Positions 41,276 through 50,030 of a DNA stretch of 50,030 nt are shown here, one piece after another (the stretch's first letter is position 1; each line of letters starts with the position of its first letter). The notes beneath the pieces were generated by a model. The model ran no database searches. It was not told the origin of the DNA and worked only from the letters and a program-made list of their open reading frames with translations. Both the position numbers and the translations under genes were made by a program. Source of the DNA: Patescibacteria group bacterium (GTDB taxonomy: Bacteria > Patescibacteriota > JAUYIX01 > JBHPHK01); NCBI GenBank assembly GCA_042569365.1, contig JBHPHK010000006.1:1-50030 (forward strand). The letters run 5' to 3'.

Positions 41276-43054
41276 ATGCCTTCTCCTCTTGAGGATGCGC
41301 TGCCTGAGCCTATTTCGGCGACTGGGGCGCATTGGAAAATCCTAAAAAAGCCGAGTGCAAATGCACTAGCAAAATTAGGCGACCTGCCCGAGGTGGTCGC
41401 GCAGCTTTTATATTTGCGCGGGATTAAAAACAAGGAGGAGAAAGATATATTTCTAGAGCCGGATTATGCGCGGGACTTGCATGACCCTCTGCTTCTCAAG
41501 GGAATGCCGGAAGGAGTCGAGCTGATCCGCCAGGCGATCACGGATGAAAAGAAAATCGTGGTCGTGGGAGACTATGACGTGGACGGGATCTGCGGTTTGA
41601 CTATCCTGGTCGGGGTCTTGAAAGACTTAGGTGCTAAAGTCGGGCACTATATGCCGTCGCGTTATCGAGATGGCTACGGTCTCACGATGCGTGTCGCTGA
41701 AAGACTGGTAGACGATGGCGTCGATCTCATTATCACAGTCGACAACGGGATCCGCAGCGTCGACGAGGTCGAGTATTTCAAAAAACAGGGCAAACAGGTG
41801 ATCGTTACAGACCATCATGGGATTGGCCCTAAGCTGCCGCCAGCAGATGTGGTCATCAACCCGCACCAGAAAGGCGACAGATACCCAAACAAGCATTTAG
41901 CGGGCGCTGCGGTTGGCTTCAAGCTAGCGACAGCGTTACTTCGCGCCTACAAATCTCCTGAGGATGCGGAAAAGGAAGAAAAATGGCTCTTAGATCTAGT
42001 GGCACTGGCAACGGTCGCAGATATGATGTCCCTGACCGGAGAGAATAGAGCACTTGTGCATTATGGATTGAAAGTTTTAGAAAAGACAAAACGCTTGGGT
42101 CTGAAAAAACTAATAGAGCTTACGCGCAGCCCGCGCGATGAAGACCAGTCGCCCACAGCAGAAACGATCGGCTGGCGGCTCGGACCGCGTCTTAATGCGG
42201 CCGGCCGGCTCGCCGACGCCAACACCGCCTATCAGCTCCTGATGGCCGACAATGATGCAGACGCCCAAAACCTCCTGACCGAGATAGAACGCCTCAATGT
42301 CATGCGTCAGGAATGGACCGAGCGCATCCGGAAAGCAGTGCAGCAGCAGATTGGAAACATCTCAGATGACAAAAAAATAATTATCGCCTCTGATACGGGC
42401 TGGCCGCACGGGGTCTTGGGGATTGTAGCCGGCAGGCTGACAGAAGAATACCAAAGACCCGTGATCTTACTAGACGAAGAAAGAGAATTTGCGACTGGTT
42501 CCGCTCGGAGCATCGAATCTTTTGATATTACTGCAGCGCTAGATAAGCACGCTGATCTTCTCGAACGCTTTGGAGGACACGCCGCCGCCGCAGGTTTGAC
42601 ATTGGAGACTGCGAAGATAGGAGAGTTTCGCGAAGAGATAGAGAAATACGCCGGCAAAATACTCAAAGACCATGACTTTAAGCGAGCGCTTATGATTGAC
42701 GCCGAGATCACAGCAAAAGACTTCACACTCGAAGTATTTGAAGCCATCCAAAAGCTTCAACCTTTCGGCGAGGACAATCTTGAGCCAGTCTTTATCCTCA
42801 AAAACGCAGAAGTCAAAGACCTTCAGACTATGGGCGACGAGGGACAGCACTGGCGCGCTCAAGTGAAGCAAAAAGACGGTCCGCTCATCAAAGTGATCGG
42901 TTTTTGCTTGTCAGATGCGTGTGCGCACGTTAAAGTGGGGGATATGATCGATGTGGCTGGCCGGCTCACGTCCAACACCTGGAACGACCAAACCACGATC
43001 GAGTTTAAAATCGAAGATGTAAAATTTTCACAAAAATATGACCGCAAAACATAA
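41276..43054 (+). CDS. recJ: ssDNA exonuclease RecJ
   Basis: GDYDVDG, GYGL, TVDNG, TDHH, PRLNAAGR, GSARS, FGGHAAAAG. Confidence 0.97.
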   Translation: MPSPLEDALPEPISATGAHWKILKKPSANALAKLGDLPEVVAQLLYLRGIKNKEEKDIFLEPDYARDLHDPLLLKGMPEGVELIRQAITDEKKIVVVGDYDVDGICGLTILVGVLKDLGAKVGHYMPSRYRDGYGLTMRVAERLVDDGVDLIITVDNGIRSVDEVEYFKKQGKQVIVTDHHGIGPKLPPADVVINPHQKGDRYPNKHLAGAAVGFKLATALLRAYKSPEDAEKEEKWLLDLVALATVADMMSLTGENRALVHYGLKVLEKTKRLGLKKLIELTRSPRDEDQSPTAETIGWRLGPRLNAAGRLADANTAYQLLMADNDADAQNLLTEIERLNVMRQEWTERIRKAVQQQIGNISDDKKIIIASDTGWPHGVLGIVAGRLTEEYQRPVILLDEEREFATGSARSIESFDITAALDKHADLLERFGGHAAAAGLTLETAKIGEFREEIEKYAGKILKDHDFKRALMIDAEITAKDFTLEVFEAIQKLQPFGEDNLEPVFILKNAEVKDLQTMGDEGQHWRAQVKQKDGPLIKVIGFCLSDACAHVKVGDMIDVAGRLTSNTWNDQTTIEFKIEDVKFSQKYDRKT

Positions 43055-43451
43055 CAAACTAATCAGCTACACAGACGGAGGAGCAAGGGGTAACCCAGGG
43101 CTGGCCGCGATCGGAGTCGTGCTTCAAGATGAGCACGGCAAGCTCGTGAAGGAATTTGGCGAGGCAATGGGCGAGGCGACCAATAATCAAGCCGAATACC
43201 AAGCTATTATCCGCGCTTTAGAAACAGCGGCAGAGCTGGGTGCGTCCGAAGTCGAGTCTTATCTCGACAGCGAGCTTGTCGTCAAGCAGCTTAACAGCGA
43301 ATACAAAGTCAAACACGCCAATATGAAGCCGCTTTTTGAGAAGGTTCAGGCTCTGGCCGGACAGTTTGATAAAGTATCTTTTGCGCATGTGATGCGCGAA
43401 GACAATGTACGGGCCGATGAGCTTTTGAATGAGGTTTTGGATAGTCTTTAG
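43038..43451 (+). CDS. Ribonuclease HI family protein
   Basis: TDGGARGNPG, TNNQAEY, DSELVV, N-x-x-AD catalytic acidic residues. Confidence 0.93.
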   Translation: MTAKHNKLISYTDGGARGNPGLAAIGVVLQDEHGKLVKEFGEAMGEATNNQAEYQAIIRALETAAELGASEVESYLDSELVVKQLNSEYKVKHANMKPLFEKVQALAGQFDKVSFAHVMREDNVRADELLNEVLDSL

Positions 43452-43456
43452 TACGT

Positions 43457-43511
43457 GTCATCCCGGACCCCGGATCAAGTCCGGGGCAAGCTTTATTGAT
43501 CCGGGATCCAG
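43457..43511. repeat. Nested REP-like palindromic element
   Basis: GTCATCCCGGA..TTGATCCGGGATCCAG interrupted by CCCCGGA-TCAAG-TCCGGGG-CAAGC. Confidence 0.6.
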
Positions 43512-43605
43512 AAATCAGCGAAAAGTCTTTGCAGTTCAAAAAACTAAGAGTATAATATAGGAGATGGAGAATACCTTAATTAAACTAGAATCGAGGTGAT
43601 TATCC

Positions 43606-43803
43606 ATGAAAAATCGAAAAGGTACTCAATGGACCAGTTCTGAAGTTGCAAATCTTAGAACATATGCAAAACAGAATACGCCCACAAGAGTAATTGCCTT
43701 AAAGATAGGTCGCACACCGACAGCCATACAGAGTAAAGCGCAGGAAAAGCATATTTCGCTTAAGCCTACAAATCAATCTCCGTATAATCGTCGAAAGAGG
43801 TAA
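43606..43803 (+). CDS. Small basic Myb/HTH-like protein (65 aa)
   Basis: WTSSEVANL...IALKIGRTPTAIQSKA pattern; GAGGTG SD; TATAAT at 43551-43556; own terminator. Confidence 0.8.
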   Translation: MKNRKGTQWTSSEVANLRTYAKQNTPTRVIALKIGRTPTAIQSKAQEKHISLKPTNQSPYNRRKR

Positions 43804-43810
43804 TAAACCA

Positions 43811-43838
43811 AGAAAACCGCCCGGGAGGGCGGTTTTCT
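43811..43838 (+). terminator. Terminator after the 65-aa gene
   Basis: AGAAAACCGCCC-GGGA-GGGCGGTTTTCT. Confidence 0.8.
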
Positions 43839-43840
43839 GC

Positions 43841-43869
43841 TTGACAGAGCGGAATTTTATAGATATTCT
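43841..43869 (+). promoter_or_regulatory. sigma70 promoter of mod (very short leader)
   Basis: TTGACA-17 bp-TATTCT, 8 bp before the ATG. Confidence 0.6.
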
Positions 43870-43877
43870 TAAATTAT

Positions 43878-46133
43878 ATGAATCTCACCGAAAACGAAAA
43901 ACGCGATGCTATAAAGCTTATTCAAAAAGGCAAACCTCTGCCAGATAAGTATCGTTTTTTGCTTTTTGATCAAGATCGTGAGGTTGAACTTGTCTGGAAT
44001 GGTAAAACTAGTGAAGTTACAAATACTATCCTACCTTTTCAGACAATTGAACATATTGACGAGCCGCGCAGTGACGAAAAAATTGAGATGCAAGGCTCGC
44101 TTTTCGATACATCCGGTCGCCAACAAAAAGGCTGGACTAACAAACTTATTTGGGGTGACAATAAACTAATCCTTTCCAGTCTTAAGAATGGACCCCTAAG
44201 AAAAGAGATTGAAAAACAGGGAGGCATAAAGCTTATCTATATTGATCCGCCTTTTGATGTGGGTGCTGATTTTTCAATGGATATTGAAATAGGCGATGAA
44301 AAGCTGACTAAGAAACCATCACAAATTGAGCAGGTTGCCTATAGAGATACATGGGGCAAAGGTGCAGATAGTTTCAATGCCATGATCTATGAACGACTGA
44401 AATTAATGCATGATCTTCTCGTAGAAGATGGAAGTATCTATGTGCATTGTGATTGGCGAGTCAGTGGACACATGAGATTAATATTGGACGAGATATTTGG
44501 AGCTGATAATTTTAGAAATGAAATCATATGGAAAAGGAGTGCTAATATTTCGTCAATTAGTAATATATTTAGAAAAGCTCATGATTCAATTTTTTATTAT
44601 TCAAAAAGCCCTAATACAAAATTGAATAAGACCTATAAAAAACATACAACCGAATATTTAGCCCAATATAATAAAGAAGATAAACTTGGTCGATACAGAC
44701 ATGCTCCACTACTTGTAAGTGGAAAAAGATCTGGTTCTACGGGTTCGACTTGGCGAGGATTTAATCCCAATACATTTGGACGCAATGGAATGCACTGGAT
44801 AACTAAGATTGAAAAATTAGAAAAACTTGACGCTGAAGAAAGAATTTATTGGCCAGAAAATGGACAGCCAATGTTGAAATATTATTTTGATGAAACAAAG
44901 GGTGTTCCAGTTTCTGACATATGGGACGATATTAAACTAATATCTCCAACTAGTATTGAATCCGCAAACTATCCTACGCAAAAACCAGAGACGTTAATGG
45001 AGAGAATAATTCAAGCGTCTACAAATACTAATGATTTGATTGCAGATTTCTTCTGCGGATCAGGGTCAGCATTAACTATGGCAGAAAAACTAGGTCGTAA
45101 GTGGGTAGGATCAGATCTCGGACGATTTAGTATTCACACTACCCGCAAGCGCATGATTAATGTACAACGAGAACTCAAAAAAGAGAGTAAAGATTATCGT
45201 GCCTTTGAAATACTAAACATTGGTCGCTATGAGCGTGAAAATTATATTTCAGTTAATAATAATCTCAAGCCAGAAGAGGCTGAAAAAGTACGCAGACAGA
45301 AAGAAAAAGATTTTGTTAATTTGATGCTGTCTGCCTATAAAGCCGAGTCTGTAAATGATTTTACGACTTTTGTTGGTAAAAAACGTGATAGATTAATCGC
45401 TGTTGGTCCTATTAATACTCCAATCACTTCAGATTTCATTGATAGTATTGTTGCTGAATGTAAAGAAAAAGGTATTACAAAAGCGGATGTATTGGCATTT
45501 GAATTTGAAATGGGCATTGACTTTGACGAATATAAAAAAGATAAAGGAATTGATCTTGCTTTCCGTTATATACCTAATGAGGTTTTTGATAAGAAGGCTG
45601 TCGAAAAAGGTCAGGTTAAATTTCATGATGTTGCCTATATCGAAGTAAAGCCGATCGTAAAAGGACGAGGCAAGAAAAAGACGTTAGCAATTGAGCTGGT
45701 GGATTTTGGTGTATTTTATAATCAAGATGCTGATGTTGATACTGATAAGCTACGACCGGGTGGTAATAAAGTCGTTATTGATAATGGTCAGGTGATCAAA
45801 ATTTCTAAAGATAAGAAGAATAATCTTGTTGATCGTGAGGTTTTGACAAAGAAATGGAGCGATTGGATTGACTATTGGTCTGTTGATTTTGATTATGAAA
45901 GTAAGAAAGAAATTATCCGTTCAGTCGATCCAAAGACCAAGAAAGAAAAAGAAGAATGGACGGGGGATTACATTTTCGAAAACGAATGGCAGTCTTTTCG
46001 AACTAAAAAAGATCGTGACCTAGAATTTATGAGTGCCGCTCGCGAAGTAACACCCGGCAAACGCAAAATTGCTATCAAGGTTGTCGATATTTTCGGGAAT
46101 GACACTACTAAAGTTATAGAAATAACAGTTTAG
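43878..46133 (+). CDS. mod: Type III R-M modification methyltransferase (beta class)
   Basis: IYIDPPF motif IV precedes DFFCGSG motif I; YPTQKPE; C-terminal KVVDIFGND. Confidence 0.92.
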   Translation: MNLTENEKRDAIKLIQKGKPLPDKYRFLLFDQDREVELVWNGKTSEVTNTILPFQTIEHIDEPRSDEKIEMQGSLFDTSGRQQKGWTNKLIWGDNKLILSSLKNGPLRKEIEKQGGIKLIYIDPPFDVGADFSMDIEIGDEKLTKKPSQIEQVAYRDTWGKGADSFNAMIYERLKLMHDLLVEDGSIYVHCDWRVSGHMRLILDEIFGADNFRNEIIWKRSANISSISNIFRKAHDSIFYYSKSPNTKLNKTYKKHTTEYLAQYNKEDKLGRYRHAPLLVSGKRSGSTGSTWRGFNPNTFGRNGMHWITKIEKLEKLDAEERIYWPENGQPMLKYYFDETKGVPVSDIWDDIKLISPTSIESANYPTQKPETLMERIIQASTNTNDLIADFFCGSGSALTMAEKLGRKWVGSDLGRFSIHTTRKRMINVQRELKKESKDYRAFEILNIGRYERENYISVNNNLKPEEAEKVRRQKEKDFVNLMLSAYKAESVNDFTTFVGKKRDRLIAVGPINTPITSDFIDSIVAECKEKGITKADVLAFEFEMGIDFDEYKKDKGIDLAFRYIPNEVFDKKAVEKGQVKFHDVAYIEVKPIVKGRGKKKTLAIELVDFGVFYNQDADVDTDKLRPGGNKVVIDNGQVIKISKDKKNNLVDREVLTKKWSDWIDYWSVDFDYESKKEIIRSVDPKTKKEKEEWTGDYIFENEWQSFRTKKDRDLEFMSAAREVTPGKRKIAIKVVDIFGNDTTKVIEITV

Positions 46134-46141
46134 ATAAACCA

Positions 46142-46321
46142 ATGAATAAACCTATTAGACAAAAAAGATCAGATACTAAGGTTGGTACAATTGAAAAAAA
46201 ATACGGTATTGACTTAGGCGCAAGATCTGATATGAAATTGGGCAATTATTTGAAAAATAAGGGTTTGCCTTCAATGAGTAAGGCCTTGAAAAATATTGAA
46301 AAAAAGGAATCTAAGAAGTAG
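46142..46321 (+). CDS. 59-aa basic protein missed by the ORF track
   Basis: MNKPIRQKRSDTKVGTIEKKYGIDLGARSDMKLGNYLKNKGLPSMSKALKNIEKKESKK; fills the mod-HEPN gap with 8-bp and 2-bp spacers. Confidence 0.75.
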   Translation: MNKPIRQKRSDTKVGTIEKKYGIDLGARSDMKLGNYLKNKGLPSMSKALKNIEKKESKK

Positions 46322-46323
46322 TC

Positions 46324-46842
46324 ATGTCAAAAGCAGTATCTGATAAAATCTTTTATAAGAATATCAAGATCAGAATTACTGATATTGCAGTTCAGATAGA
46401 TCACGCCTCAAAGAAAGGAATAAGCAATCAGGCTAAATCCGGATACTATAGATTTGCAATACTATTAGCTTGTACAATTGCTGAAGGTCTACTATACAGA
46501 ATAATAAGAAATGAATTAGACAAGACTGGAGATCATATCAGTACTATTACAATATATAAATACCCTCATAATATTCCATCTCGATATTCGAGTAAGAGCA
46601 CGGTCCTATGTCTTCAGGAGAAAAAAGATATTTCATTGTCAAATCAAACCAAATTCAGTGAAATGATCGATTATGCTGCAAAAAATAATTTAGTATCATT
46701 AAGAGAAAAGAACAAATTAATTAAGATTATGCGCCTGAGAAATAAAATTCATTTACAATCTCTGGATATTGCAGATAGGGGATATACAAAAAAGAAATTA
46801 GATGAGATATTTAGCACAATTAATTACCTAATAAGAAAATAG
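46324..46842 (+). CDS. HEPN-like protein
   Basis: Helical; AILLACTIAEGLL segment and C-terminal RLRNKIH (R-x5-H) motif. Confidence 0.65.
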   Translation: MSKAVSDKIFYKNIKIRITDIAVQIDHASKKGISNQAKSGYYRFAILLACTIAEGLLYRIIRNELDKTGDHISTITIYKYPHNIPSRYSSKSTVLCLQEKKDISLSNQTKFSEMIDYAAKNNLVSLREKNKLIKIMRLRNKIHLQSLDIADRGYTKKKLDEIFSTINYLIRK

Positions 46843-46848
46843 TGTTTT

Positions 46849-49515
46849 ATGGCTCTACATAAAGATTTTCCAAAAGATAAATTCGCAATAGCTGACCCTG
46901 GAGTTCGCTGGTTTCCGGCTGATGAGGATTTGCGCGATAAAGGATATGAAAAGTTGTTACCGCCATTGGTAGCTGAGATTAGGAATGAAGTACATGAGTG
47001 GCGCAAGAAGAATTATGAAGGTGTTTCTGAGACATCAAAAGCCTTATTGAATTGGTGGTTTAATGAACAGCATAATATTTTTTCAGAAAATGGAGAACCT
47101 ATTTCATTCCAATATTATTTTGCACAGCGTGAAGCGGTTGAATCCATCATCTGGCTCTATGAGGTTGCGCAGGCGCGCAATAAATACGATCTAATCAAAT
47201 ATGATAGTAGTGGCAGAGTTAGCGCTGGAATGTTTGACGAAGAATGGTTGCGTCTAGTTATTAAGATGGCGACGGGTAGTGGCAAGACAAAAGTCATGAG
47301 CTTACTGATCGCATGGTCATATTTTCATAAGCTTTACGAGAAAGACTCAGAATTGTCTAAGAATTTCTTATTTATAACACCAAATATTATTGTTCTTGAA
47401 CGCATTAAGACAGATCTTGAAGGACTTAAGATATTCTATGAAGATCCAATTTTGCCTGACAATGGATATCAGGGTCAAAATTGGGGAGATGATTTCCAGG
47501 TTACTCTACATTTGCAAGATGAGGTTGGCACCATTTCGAAGACCGGTAACATATTTTTGACAAATATCCATCGTGTATATGAGGGAGATTCAAACGAGCC
47601 TAGTATAGAAGATGATAATTTAGAGGAATATTTCCTGGGGCCGAAGCCGGTTGCAAAAACAACTGACACAAAAGTGGATCTCGGTGATATCATTCGTGAT
47701 ATTGACGAATTAATGGTGATCAATGATGAAGCGCACCATATTCACGATCCAAAAATGGCGTGGTTTAAATCGATTCAAGATATTCATAATCAACTATTAC
47801 TCAAAGACAGCAAATTAGCATTGCAGATTGATGTTACAGCAACACCTAAGGGAGAAAAGGGTAATATATTTGTACAAACCATTTGTGACTATCCGCTAGT
47901 AGAAGCAATTTATCAAGAAGTAGTTAAGCAACCAGTTGTTCCAGATGAACCAAGTCGCGCCAAGCTTGAAGAGGTCGAAAGTGCTATCTATTCAGAAAGA
48001 TATAAAAGTTATCTTGATTTAGGAGTAATCGAATGGAGGAAGCAATATAACGAATTAATAAAAAACAATAAGAAGTCGATTTTATTTATAATGACCGACG
48101 ATACAAAGAATTGTGATGAGGTAGCAGAATACTTGGAAACAACATATTCTGAATTAAAGGGCGCGGTATTGACCATTCACACCAATAAGAGTGGTGACAT
48201 AGCGGAATCAGCAACTGGTAAGAAAAAAGAGGAACTCGATAAGTTACGCAAGCAGGCAAATGAAATAGACAGTATGGAAAGTCCGTACAAGGTAATTGTA
48301 TCAGTCTTGATGCTGAAAGAAGGGTGGGATGTAAAAAATGTAACTACAATTGTTGGTTTACGTGCATATACTTCAAAATCAAATATTCTACCTGAACAAA
48401 CTCTTGGACGAGGGTTACGTAGAATGTTTTTTGGACAGAATGTTAAAGAATCTGTTAGTGTCCTTGGAACGGAAGCATTTATGGACTTTGTTAATACAAT
48501 CACTGCAGAAGGTGTTGAATTTGAACAAAGGACTATTAATAAAAATACAGGCGCTATTGCCCCAGCTGTTATTGAGGTAGATAAGGATAATACTAACAAG
48601 GATATTGAGAAGCTAGATATCGAGATACCTATTATGACTCCTCGTATTCAGCGAGAGTACAAAAATCTAAGCGATCTAGATGTATCCAATTTTAAGAACA
48701 AGAAAATGGTCTATGAGACATTTTCTAAAGAACAACAAAAGGAAATTATTTTTGCTGATGTTGTTGAGAACATAGAACATCATAAGACTATTATGGATAA
48801 CGCAACTTATACAAATTATCAAAACGTTATTGGTTTTTTTGCTAATACCTTAGTGCGCGATATGCATCTTATTGGAGGATTTGATATATTATTCGGAAAA
48901 ATAAAAGAATTTATTTTGACTAAATTATTTGATCAAAAGGTTGATCTAGATGATCCTAATATGATCAGAAACTTATCAAGCGCCAGGAAAGTGTTAATGG
49001 AGGTCTTCAAGAAGGAAGTAAATGATCTAACTGTAAAGGATATTGGAGATACTGAAATTAAGAATTATATTAAAGTCAGTGAGGCGCGGCCATTTGTCGT
49101 GAATGATCAGAAATATTTGAAACCAAAAAAGAGCGTATTCAATAAGATAGTAGGTGACAGTGATTTTGAACTTGAGTTTGCTGATTTTCTCGAGGGAGCG
49201 GATGACATTATTTCATACGCAAAAAATTACATAGATATTCACTTTAGGATCGATTATAGAAATGCCGATGGAGCGATCGCAAATTATTATCCTGATTTCT
49301 TAGTGAAAGTTGACCCTAAAACAATATATGTTATTGAGACAAAAGGTCGAGAAGATTTAGATGATATTGAGAAAATCAAACGTCTCGAGCAATGGTGTAA
49401 AGACGCAACTGAACGACAGAAGAAATATGCATACAAAATGCTTTATGTGAAGCAGGATGAGTGGGAAAAGTATAAACCGAAGAGTTTTAAGGAGTTAGTC
49501 AAAAATTATGAATAA
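46849..49515 (+). CDS. res: Type III R-M restriction subunit (SF2 helicase plus PD-(D/E)xK nuclease)
   Basis: MATGSGKT, INDEAHH, TAT, LKEGWD, QTLGRGLR, YYPDF..IETKG. Confidence 0.92.
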   Translation: MALHKDFPKDKFAIADPGVRWFPADEDLRDKGYEKLLPPLVAEIRNEVHEWRKKNYEGVSETSKALLNWWFNEQHNIFSENGEPISFQYYFAQREAVESIIWLYEVAQARNKYDLIKYDSSGRVSAGMFDEEWLRLVIKMATGSGKTKVMSLLIAWSYFHKLYEKDSELSKNFLFITPNIIVLERIKTDLEGLKIFYEDPILPDNGYQGQNWGDDFQVTLHLQDEVGTISKTGNIFLTNIHRVYEGDSNEPSIEDDNLEEYFLGPKPVAKTTDTKVDLGDIIRDIDELMVINDEAHHIHDPKMAWFKSIQDIHNQLLLKDSKLALQIDVTATPKGEKGNIFVQTICDYPLVEAIYQEVVKQPVVPDEPSRAKLEEVESAIYSERYKSYLDLGVIEWRKQYNELIKNNKKSILFIMTDDTKNCDEVAEYLETTYSELKGAVLTIHTNKSGDIAESATGKKKEELDKLRKQANEIDSMESPYKVIVSVLMLKEGWDVKNVTTIVGLRAYTSKSNILPEQTLGRGLRRMFFGQNVKESVSVLGTEAFMDFVNTITAEGVEFEQRTINKNTGAIAPAVIEVDKDNTNKDIEKLDIEIPIMTPRIQREYKNLSDLDVSNFKNKKMVYETFSKEQQKEIIFADVVENIEHHKTIMDNATYTNYQNVIGFFANTLVRDMHLIGGFDILFGKIKEFILTKLFDQKVDLDDPNMIRNLSSARKVLMEVFKKEVNDLTVKDIGDTEIKNYIKVSEARPFVVNDQKYLKPKKSVFNKIVGDSDFELEFADFLEGADDIISYAKNYIDIHFRIDYRNADGAIANYYPDFLVKVDPKTIYVIETKGREDLDDIEKIKRLEQWCKDATERQKKYAYKMLYVKQDEWEKYKPKSFKELVKNYE

Positions 49516-49936
49516 TAAACAATCAGGAACACAAGGCGAAATCGAAGTAACAAAACAAATTCCTTGCCTAAACTGTGGTAAGGAATTAATGCTATTGCCT
49601 CCAAACTATCCACTCTATGATGTGCAGTGTACAGGCTGTAATTTTCGTGCGCAAGTAAAGACTAATAAATCGAAACCTAAAAATATTGTTTTCGGTGCAG
49701 GTTGGGACATTATGGATAAAATTTTGAAGTCTGGCTTTATTACTCCACCTTTGTTTGTTAATTTTAAATGGGAAGAAAAAGGTAAGAAGAAACAACAAAT
49801 AATTTATTATCCATTTATTCCAAAAACTCATCTTAGAAAATATCAGCTCTCTAAGACAGCACGAAGAGCTAATTATAAAATGTTTAACTATGTCGGCCTC
49901 GATGAGTTGCCTTCGATGGTTGTTTACGAAAAATAA
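49508..49936 (+). CDS. DpnI-like catalytic domain protein without the winged-helix domain
   Basis: CLNCG..YDVQCTGC..AQVKT..GAG..IPK..LSKTARRA resembles the DpnI N-terminal domain; overlaps the res stop. Confidence 0.7.
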   Translation: MNNKQSGTQGEIEVTKQIPCLNCGKELMLLPPNYPLYDVQCTGCNFRAQVKTNKSKPKNIVFGAGWDIMDKILKSGFITPPLFVNFKWEEKGKKKQQIIYYPFIPKTHLRKYQLSKTARRANYKMFNYVGLDELPSMVVYEK

Positions 49937-50030
49937 ATTTAGTAGATATGAACATTTCCCTAGAAACACATTTAGCCATTTGGTTCACGCACCAATAAAA
50001 TGCGTCGTTCTTTATCAGCAAACATCGTAA

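Follow-up and report, generated by a model that had tools for sequence, protein, structure and literature searches.

A candidate p59-HEPN cassette in the mod-res junction of a Type III restriction-modification operon from a Patescibacteria bacterium

To our knowledge, the immune genes of bacteria of the candidate phyla radiation (CPR) are almost entirely uncharacterised. The locus described here belongs to one of them, a Patescibacteria group bacterium, and lies at the end of contig JBHPHK010000006.1 (assembly GCA_042569365.1; genome of 725 kb, 87% complete); the window analysed is this whole contig of 50,030 bp. Six open reading frames (ORFs) follow one another on the + strand, namely those for a 65-residue protein, a Type III DNA methyltransferase (Mod), a 59-residue protein that we call p59, a 172-residue HEPN-fold protein, a Type III restriction subunit (Res), and a short DpnI-like protein that we call mini-DpnI. 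The intergenic gaps are 8 bp (mod/p59), 2 bp (p59/HEPN), and 6 bp (HEPN/res), and res and the mini-DpnI ORF overlap by 8 bp, exactly the packing given in an earlier sequence-only reading of this DNA. The same reading described the block as more AT-rich than the core genes, and the measured G+C fraction agrees, at 0.351 over positions 43878-49936 versus 0.458 over positions 1-43500; within the block it is lower in the p59 gene (0.306) and the HEPN gene (0.297) than in mod (0.361) and res (0.358). That reading went on to treat the island as one composite system of three layers, which would cover unmodified phage DNA, modified phage DNA, and inhibition of restriction-modification (R-M).

The Type III operon

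Mod (751 residues; 43878-46133, + strand) matches PF01555 (E = 2.7e-40) and the PADLOC model MTase_III (5.9e-113), and its translation shows the motif order IDPPF (motif IV) before FCGSGS (motif I). Res (888 residues; 46849-49515, + strand) matches PF04851 (ResIII; 2.7e-17) and PADLOC REase_III (1e-20), and its translation reads as an SF2 helicase (GSGKT, DEAH) with a C-terminal PD...ETK nuclease motif; its matches to PF19778 (RE_endonuc; 1.9e-4, 21.7 bits against a cut-off of 23.4) and to NF046055 (1.6e-82) fall below the respective cut-offs. Judged by these motifs and family matches, Mod and Res constitute a complete Type III R-M pair. Of 401 genomes sampled from the phylum, 23 have a Res match at E ≤ 1e-20, the genome of the window being one of them, and the closest matches are 59-71% identical. 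The component labels of the sequence-only reading hold at the level of family or fold, through PF01555 for Mod, ResIII for Res, the fold alone for the HEPN protein, PF06044 for the DpnI-like protein, and phrog_323 for the helix-turn-helix (HTH) protein encoded ahead of mod; the PADLOC search that it had proposed returned MTase_III, REase_III, and mREase_II.

The HEPN-fold protein and its small neighbour p59

The 172-residue protein (46324-46842, + strand; pI 9.9) is assigned to HEPN on its fold. Its AlphaFold2 (AF2) model, with a predicted local distance difference test score (pLDDT) of 91.4, has helices at residues 2-28, 35-68, 126-144, and 156-171, and an insert of a beta-hairpin and a helix (73-120) between helices 2 and 3. 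The structures that VIA-align places nearest to this model are HI0074 (1jog; Z 10.6, root-mean-square deviation 3.7, 124 residues aligned), HepT SO_3166 (5yep; Z 10.5), AF_0298 (Z 10.3), and the HEPN toxin 7ae2 (Z 10.2), followed by sacsin HEPN, RnlA, Csm6, AbiV, and others; values near 10 are not decisive for helical bundles, for which a Z below about 13 can be generic. Nine of the 11 top rows are HEPN proteins or MNT-partner proteins, and Foldseek gives the top rank to HepT chains (probability 1.0, E 0.03).

The protein has 28 close homologues of about 170 residues, and a profile search extends the family to 292 cluster representatives at E ≤ 0.001. E54, R139, N140, and H143 are invariant in an alignment of 27 family sequences, and among 126 relatives at 18-37% identity R139 and H143 are the sole invariant columns, with E54 and N140 conserved in at least 90%. 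In the AF2 model, helix 3 (126-144) ends with the R-N-x-x-H motif, and helix 2 contains E54. In the accessible part of Anantharaman et al. (2013; PMC3710099), the HEPN RNase site is described as an Rx4-6H motif that closes helix 3, with a polar residue after the arginine and an acidic residue in helix 2, and the positions of R139, N140, H143, and E54 coincide with the active site as placed there; the spacing of the invariant columns, Rx3H, deviates from it. Curated models are approached by some relatives below threshold: PF18735 (HEPN_RiboL-PSP) by 8 of the 27 (best 1.1e-4) and 8 of the 126 (best 1.7e-6), and the HepT-like and DUF4145 models likewise. PF01934 is matched by 3 of the 27 with a best E of 0.032, which does not amount to membership at the sequence level, and the window protein itself matches PADLOC PDC-S64 weakly, at 6.7e-4 over residues 129-171. 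On the strength of the structural model, the 172-residue protein is thus a HEPN-fold protein of a family that stands outside all curated models, and it is probably a metal-independent RNase. A scan of viral contigs gave no relatives of the family, a result that says nothing about its absence from phages.

The gene immediately upstream encodes p59 (46142-46321, + strand; pI 10.2), a basic protein of 59 residues and a predicted HEPN binder. It belongs to an undescribed family, as no family match above threshold emerged from searches of Pfam, NCBIfam, PADLOC, and phrog; the family takes in 49 other clusters and is strongly conserved, R9, D11, I17-E-K-K-Y21, L37, and S44 are invariant, and the consensus is KRxDTxxGTIEKKYGxDLGxRSDxKLGxYLKxxGxxSLSxxL. 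The AF2 model (pLDDT 87.8) consists of three short helices, for which fold searches produced no usable match (best VIA-align Z 3.5, best Foldseek E 1.2). When p59 and the HEPN protein were modelled together, the ipSAE score was 0.79, 0.79, and 0.78 in three runs versus 0.01 for the best control, and the three runs had at least 96% of their contacts in common, with a partner pLDDT of at least 77. Of 157 solved complexes, 116 attained the mark used for such scores, as did 2 of 215 mismatched pairs, a calibration that is rough only, as our own alignments were supplied. In the predicted complex, the interface on the HEPN side is made of helix 1 (7-29) and helix 4 (156-171). The models therefore predict that p59 binds the adjacent HEPN protein.

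The two genes have the layout of a type II-like toxin-antitoxin module, being small, adjacent, and co-oriented, with a 2-bp spacer and with binding predicted in silico. Among characterised systems, this arrangement is similar to HepT-MntA (SO_3166/SO_3165; PDB 5yep, 7bxo) and to RnlA-RnlB and LsoA-LsoB, which provide the best fold matches and likewise combine two adjacent genes with contact between the proteins, a contact that is predicted in the present case. There are also differences from these systems: the partner p59 is not a nucleotidyltransferase and has 59 residues without a recognisable fold, the small gene is the upstream one, and the HEPN protein lies outside PF01934. With 59 and 172 residues, an interface predicted with confidence, and an invariant signature reduced to E and R-N-x-x-H, the pair offers a very small cassette that lends itself to experiment.

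The mod-res junction as a variable cargo slot

Of the 15 assessable loci to which the HEPN protein led, 14 have a p59 gene immediately before the HEPN gene; the exceptions among the HEPN-led loci are L008, which starts inside the HEPN gene, and L017, which has no p59. Besides the window, six loci (L002, L004, L009, L010, L011, and L012) have the pair between Mod and Res, and it stands without Mod or Res in at least five distinct loci (L003/L013, L015, L016, L018, and L053, the last found via p59), where identity is 27-36% for HEPN and 53-67% for p59. Since the pair is also found away from any mod-res pair, it appears from these sequences to be an autonomous cassette that is independent of Mod and Res.

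The HEPN gene of L005-L008 is truncated at its C-terminal end, stopping at about residue 149-151 and hence without the last helix, which is half of the predicted p59 interface, and a different, 299-residue N6_N4 methyltransferase follows in place of res. A search led by p59 found p59 in 13 of 400 other genomes, whereas the HEPN profile matched 3 of 400. Homologues of p59 that have no HEPN neighbour stand directly 5' of a 378-residue DUF4062 protein (L059:1336-2971) or a DUF3892 protein (L061:386-1710). In L009 (5166-9844), a metagenome contig, the genes that adjoin the block mod-p59-HEPN-res are those of a serine recombinase, of large and small terminase-like proteins, and of a ParB-methyltransferase; these neighbours suggest that the system borders a prophage or phage-like element.

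The junction that houses the pair is occupied by other genes in most relatives of the operon. Ten related Type III operons, none of which had been matched by the HEPN profile, were extended, and Mod (52-61% identical) was upstream of Res (60-71% identical) in all ten. Other genes lie between mod and res in nine, and one has no insert. The cargo of known families comprises an OLD-like protein (AAA_21 with TOPRIM), AIPR, Schlafen (AlbA_2 with HATPase_c_4), DUF3800 with a ClpP-like protease, and NYN; the remaining cargo consists of unknown proteins of 185, 219, 204, and 101 + 113 + 288 residues, which show no kinship with each other, with p59, or with HEPN. The possibility that the unknown cargo of L041 and L043-L045 represents diverged HEPN or p59 was considered and rejected, the best hmmsearch E value being 0.13 and mutual blastp matches being absent. 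In the extended loci, the Mod alignment reaches the last residue and the Res alignment starts at residue 1, so that exchange has taken place precisely at the junction. In the Res tree, the three HEPN carriers with a full-length Res do not group in a single clade, at least two changes being required by well-supported branches; the HEPN carrier L002 is sister to an AIPR carrier with 100/100 support. The genes 3' of the related operons vary as well, with GmrSD, PDDEXK_1, HARE-HTH with PDDEXK_5, NERD, PIF1 helicase, RuvC, and others among them. The mod-res junction is thus a variable slot for cargo genes.

Some of these operons have peculiarities of their own. In L042 (11094-13429), res is followed by a PDDEXK_1/Cas4-like nuclease gene that overlaps it by 4 bp and then by a serine recombinase gene, and the slot holds the DUF3800 and ClpP-like protease cargo. 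One genome, G185, has two paralogous Type III operons (L046 and L044, on contigs C4 and C2), one with the 219-residue cargo gene and the other without cargo and with mod split into ORFs of 233 and 496 residues; in L047, res is split into ORFs of 320 and 576 residues.

These results do not support the single three-layer system of the sequence-only reading: other cargo fills the slot in the nine related operons just described, mini-DpnI is missing from all 12 related Type III operons whose downstream sequence is available, and the 65-residue HTH protein has no tblastn match in any related locus. That reading had also named random variation of the accessory genes at this site as an outcome that would count against it; the genes do vary, to a large extent, but not randomly, because the pair recurs in this slot in six other loci. 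The locus is therefore better regarded as a stack of independent, separately mobile defence modules than as one three-layer machine, a view that we consider probable. Taken jointly, the account that we favour, and hold to be on balance the likely one, comprises a mobile Type III R-M operon, a p59-HEPN cassette in its slot, an appended mini-DpnI gene, and an unrelated HTH gene. Such exchangeability of parts guards against naming a three-layer system from a single locus.

In this favoured account, the low-GC Type III operon would have been acquired horizontally by the Patescibacteria/CPR host and would restrict unmodified DNA, while its mod-res slot would hold a self-contained p59-HEPN cassette. 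The HEPN protein would act as a metal-independent RNase using E54, R139, N140, and H143, and p59, gripping the face formed by helices 1 and 4, would restrain it until infection or loss of the locus freed it, on the model of toxin-antitoxin and abortive-infection modules with HEPN proteins. Freed HEPN might then serve as an RNA-level back-up to DNA-level restriction, and mini-DpnI, encoded after res, would be a third and independent accessory nuclease.

Several observations weigh against this account. By sequence, the HEPN protein of the window matches nothing in Pfam, NCBIfam, or PDB, the search being made with the protein and, for PDB, also by profile, and its invariant spacing R139-x3-H143 (Rx3H) is outside the published Rx4-6H, an Rx5H spacing being reached only via R137, which is present in 24 of the 27 sequences. 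p59 is basic, unlike many antitoxins. Among the p59-led loci, 8 of 12 have no adjacent HEPN protein of the 172-residue family, their neighbours including a DUF4062 protein, a DUF3892 protein, and unknown proteins; because of these loci, p59 is not a dedicated HEPN partner and could be a small regulator, and there are hints that it pairs with several kinds of partner. In addition, several of the pair loci are near-identical, so that the co-occurrence counts overstate independence: one p59 sequence is common to L005-L008 and L011, and L003 and L013 seem to be a single locus. Finally, the pair is found more often inside R-M loci than outside them, which would also fit a functional tie to R-M.

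The unusual spacing, together with the basic character of p59 and its occurrence alone, might suggest that the HEPN-fold protein is not catalytic at all, and is rather an MtlR-like regulator or a substrate-binding module, with p59 as a small DNA-binding regulator of the operon. MtlR and YggD are indeed among the VIA-align fold matches (Z 8.3-8.7), and a small repressor of an R-M island, RptR, is on record in the part of PMC12255303 that was consulted. However, the 126 diverged relatives have R139 and H143 as their sole invariants and keep N140 and E54 in at least 90% of cases, which is the signature of a HEPN RNase in the expected structural place, and p59 is positioned on HEPN with high confidence and is encoded in the middle of the operon rather than at its start. 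A non-catalytic role therefore seems very improbable to us.

The tie to R-M deserves closer attention, as the general idea that a HEPN protein in an R-M operon provides a second line of defence, which the sequence-only reading shared, is already in the literature. Anantharaman et al. (2013; PMC3710099), in the portion available to us, describe HEPN genes in R-M operons as a second, RNA-level or multi-pronged defence in at least 16 clades, and the anticodon nuclease PrrC is the experimental precedent (PMC12707154, likewise seen in part). What is new here is the p59-HEPN family and the predicted binding of its two members. As with PrrC in the Type Ic system EcoprrI, a HEPN-fold protein is encoded inside an R-M operon; the host system is Type III in the present case, however, and not Type I. 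Unlike PrrC and RloC, the window protein is a stand-alone protein of 172 residues without an N-terminal ABC ATPase, and unlike PrrC it has a 59-residue predicted binder, is found with that binder outside R-M as well, and has the invariant motif RNxxH (Rx3H).

A PrrC-like guard could nevertheless be envisaged, in which the HEPN RNase, with p59 as an adaptor, is silenced by contact with Mod and Res and fires upon phage anti-restriction, and which together with a methyl-directed mini-DpnI would make up a co-evolved three-layer system. The position of the pair within the operon, with spacers of 2-8 bp, and its recurrence in the mod-res slot of six other loci would suit such a guard, as would the abortive-infection-type effectors AIPR, OLD-like, NYN, and Schlafen that the slot carries elsewhere and the precedents of EcoprrI and the HEPN clades tied to R-M. 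On the other hand, the pair does without Mod and Res in the loci listed above, swaps of cargo do not follow the Res phylogeny, the HEPN protein comes with a predicted binder of its own and, at 172 residues, lacks the ABC ATPase of PrrC, and mini-DpnI and the HTH protein are missing from all related operons. We regard this guard as unlikely.

A third possibility is that the pair is a toxin-antitoxin module without a direct anti-phage role, which through post-segregational killing would stabilise the mobile R-M island. Two genes with the small one first, predicted binding between their products, the foreign composition of the island, and the serine recombinases and prophage genes that adjoin the related operons L009 and L042 are all features that would suit such an addiction module. 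R-M systems are already addictive in themselves, though; the same slot holds annotated defence-effector families (AIPR, OLD-like), which argues for defence cargo; and p59 often occurs without a HEPN partner. Addiction as the sole function is accordingly doubtful, to about the same degree as the guard.

Nested defence genes are the topic of the guilt-by-embedding study of Payne et al. (2024, preprint; 10.1101/2024.01.29.577857). The hosts named in the part that could be consulted are Hma, BREX, DISARM, and Type I R-M; Type III is not among them. The loci described there are similar to the present ones in that variable effectors (HEPN, NYN, OLD/TOPRIM-ATPase, GmrSD-like, and others) are nested in a multi-gene defence operon; the HEPN candidate in that part, HEC-08, is a DUF3644 protein with zinc fingers, unlike the HEPN protein of the window. 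The present results lend independent support to the view that new defence genes are worth seeking at Type III mod-res junctions, as they are at Type I, BREX, DISARM, and Hma loci. More tentatively, p59 might be a modular clamp by which ultra-small bacteria keep varied effectors inactive, among them the Rx3H HEPN RNase of the window, a DUF4062 protein, and others; p59-HEPN might be an undescribed abortive-infection system; and the 3' end of mod and the 5' end of res might act as recombination arms that make the junction a site of cassette exchange for immune genes. We offer this broader picture as a conjecture that may well prove wrong.

Mini-DpnI, the 65-residue protein, and the transcription signals

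Mini-DpnI (142 residues; 49508-49936, + strand) is a Cys4 zinc-ribbon/PD-(D/E)XK-like nuclease domain that matches PF06044 at 5.9e-12 (46 bits, cut-off 26.7; profile positions 27-153 of 183) and PADLOC mREase_II at 7.3e-8, with a weak match to DpnI itself (PDB 4esj, E 0.025). The sequence-only reading had taken it for a DpnI-like nuclease that cuts methylated DNA. The PF06044 domain stands, but the catalytic glutamate and the winged helix of DpnI are lacking, so that cutting of methylated DNA is not established. C20, C23, C41, and C44 are invariant in the alignment, D38 and K51 are kept, and Q49 takes the position of the catalytic E and is nearly invariant among the rows of the short family; the DpnI_C winged helix (PF17726) is absent, as the ORF ends at residue 142. 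The protein thus resembles R.DpnI (Type IIM, Gm6ATC-dependent; 4esj/4kyw; PF06044 with PF17726) in its Cys4 site, its PD-(D/E)XK-type core, and the aligned D38 and K51, and differs from it in length (142 versus about 260 residues), in having no DpnI_C, in Q49 for E, and in score, its 46 bits comparing with 274-278 bits for the full-length DpnI homologues of L036 and L037, which retain the E and DpnI_C.

The short family (142-144 residues) numbers 1352 clusters at about 70% identity. A conserved housekeeping gene was considered on account of these figures and rejected, because close homologues occur in only 4 of the 400 other sampled genomes. The homologues follow a Type I hsdR gene (L033), an AlwI-type restriction enzyme with its methyltransferase (L034), or a Schlafen helicase with RadC (L032), and one has no such context (L035). 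The host genome, at its 87% completeness, yielded no D12 Dam methylase, and its GATC observed/expected ratio of 1.13 indicates no depletion; both are compatible with a methyl-directed mini-DpnI. A scan of viral contigs gave no relatives of mini-DpnI, which says nothing about its absence from phages, and a full-text literature search for DpnI in Patescibacteria returned nothing related. On the sequence evidence, mini-DpnI is an independent accessory nuclease, with methylated DNA as a conceivable substrate, that hitch-hikes at the 3' end of several types of R-M.

The immigration control region of E. coli K-12, in which hsdRMS lies with mrr and mcrBC, likewise unites modification-blocked and modification-dependent nucleases in one variable locus. 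It is a neighbourhood of independent systems and not an operon, and the same conclusion would apply to mini-DpnI here. In L037 (G320:C1:293864-297217), the full-length DpnI homologue, of 264 residues, is about 13 kb from a Type III mod-OLD-res operon and is flanked by DUF3800 and HNH genes, in what looks like a larger defence neighbourhood.

At the opposite end of the island, the 65-residue protein (43606-43803, + strand; pI 11.7) is basic and probably an HTH DNA-binding protein, as it matches phrog_323 ("transcriptional regulator, D5-like"; 1.1e-9) and also phrog_2511 (7.3e-4); it has no match in Pfam, NCBIfam, PADLOC, or PDB. The G+C fraction of its gene is 0.399. A promoter-like TTTGCA-17-TATAAT (43528-43556, + strand; 10 of 12 positions, a match to consensus only) lies 5' of this gene, and a 12-pair G+C-rich, terminator-like hairpin (43811-43838), scored on the - strand with an identical palindrome on the + strand, separates it from mod. 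With a promoter-like site of its own and this hairpin, the gene seems to be a separate transcription unit and an unrelated neighbour outside the conserved system. These signals, together with the lack of a homologue in related loci, detach it from the composite system in which the sequence-only reading had placed it, and the gene has neither the conservation nor the apparent co-transcription with R-M by which an R-M controller or island repressor would be recognised.

A second promoter-like site, TTGACA-17-TATTCT (43841-43869, + strand; 10 of 12 positions), ends 8 nt before the ATG of mod. Promoter-like sites are not enriched in the region (32 versus 24.5 +/- 5.2 in shuffles), and 3' of the mod start the + strand has only three terminator-like sites, which are weak and all inside mod. 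A single transcript from mod onward under one promoter is plausible and consistent with the sequence. Because no Shine-Dalgarno (SD) sequence is visible at the mod start (43841-43880) and the -10-like hexamer is 8 nt from the ATG, the mod mRNA may have little or no leader. The p59, HEPN, and res genes have no obvious SD, and the mini-DpnI ORF has an AGGAG about 10 nt upstream, within the 3' end of res.

The boundaries of the island offer little to define its insertion. Neither a tRNA nor an Rfam family is present in positions 43000-50030, and no flanking repeat there is convincing; hence no att site or insertion scar was found, the right flank being lost to the contig end, which cuts the island 94 bp past the last ORF. 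The last 300 bases of the contig have no match in other contigs of the assembly. The nearest sampled genomes reach only 35-42% RecJ identity, and synteny does not define the insertion point. A 14-nt inverted repeat (93% complementary, 17-nt spacer; 43465-43509) sits just past the RNase H gene, where the GC content breaks from that of the core genes to that of the island, and could be a terminator or a recombination scar. Two other low-GC contigs are present in the same assembly: C21 (2593 bp, GC 0.343) encodes a second N6_N4 methyltransferase (564-residue ORF, 95.5 bits), and C13 (16571 bp, GC 0.383) has tandem ORFs of 886 and 534 residues. These contigs might represent additional defence loci that were acquired, or else the part of the island that the contig end cuts off.

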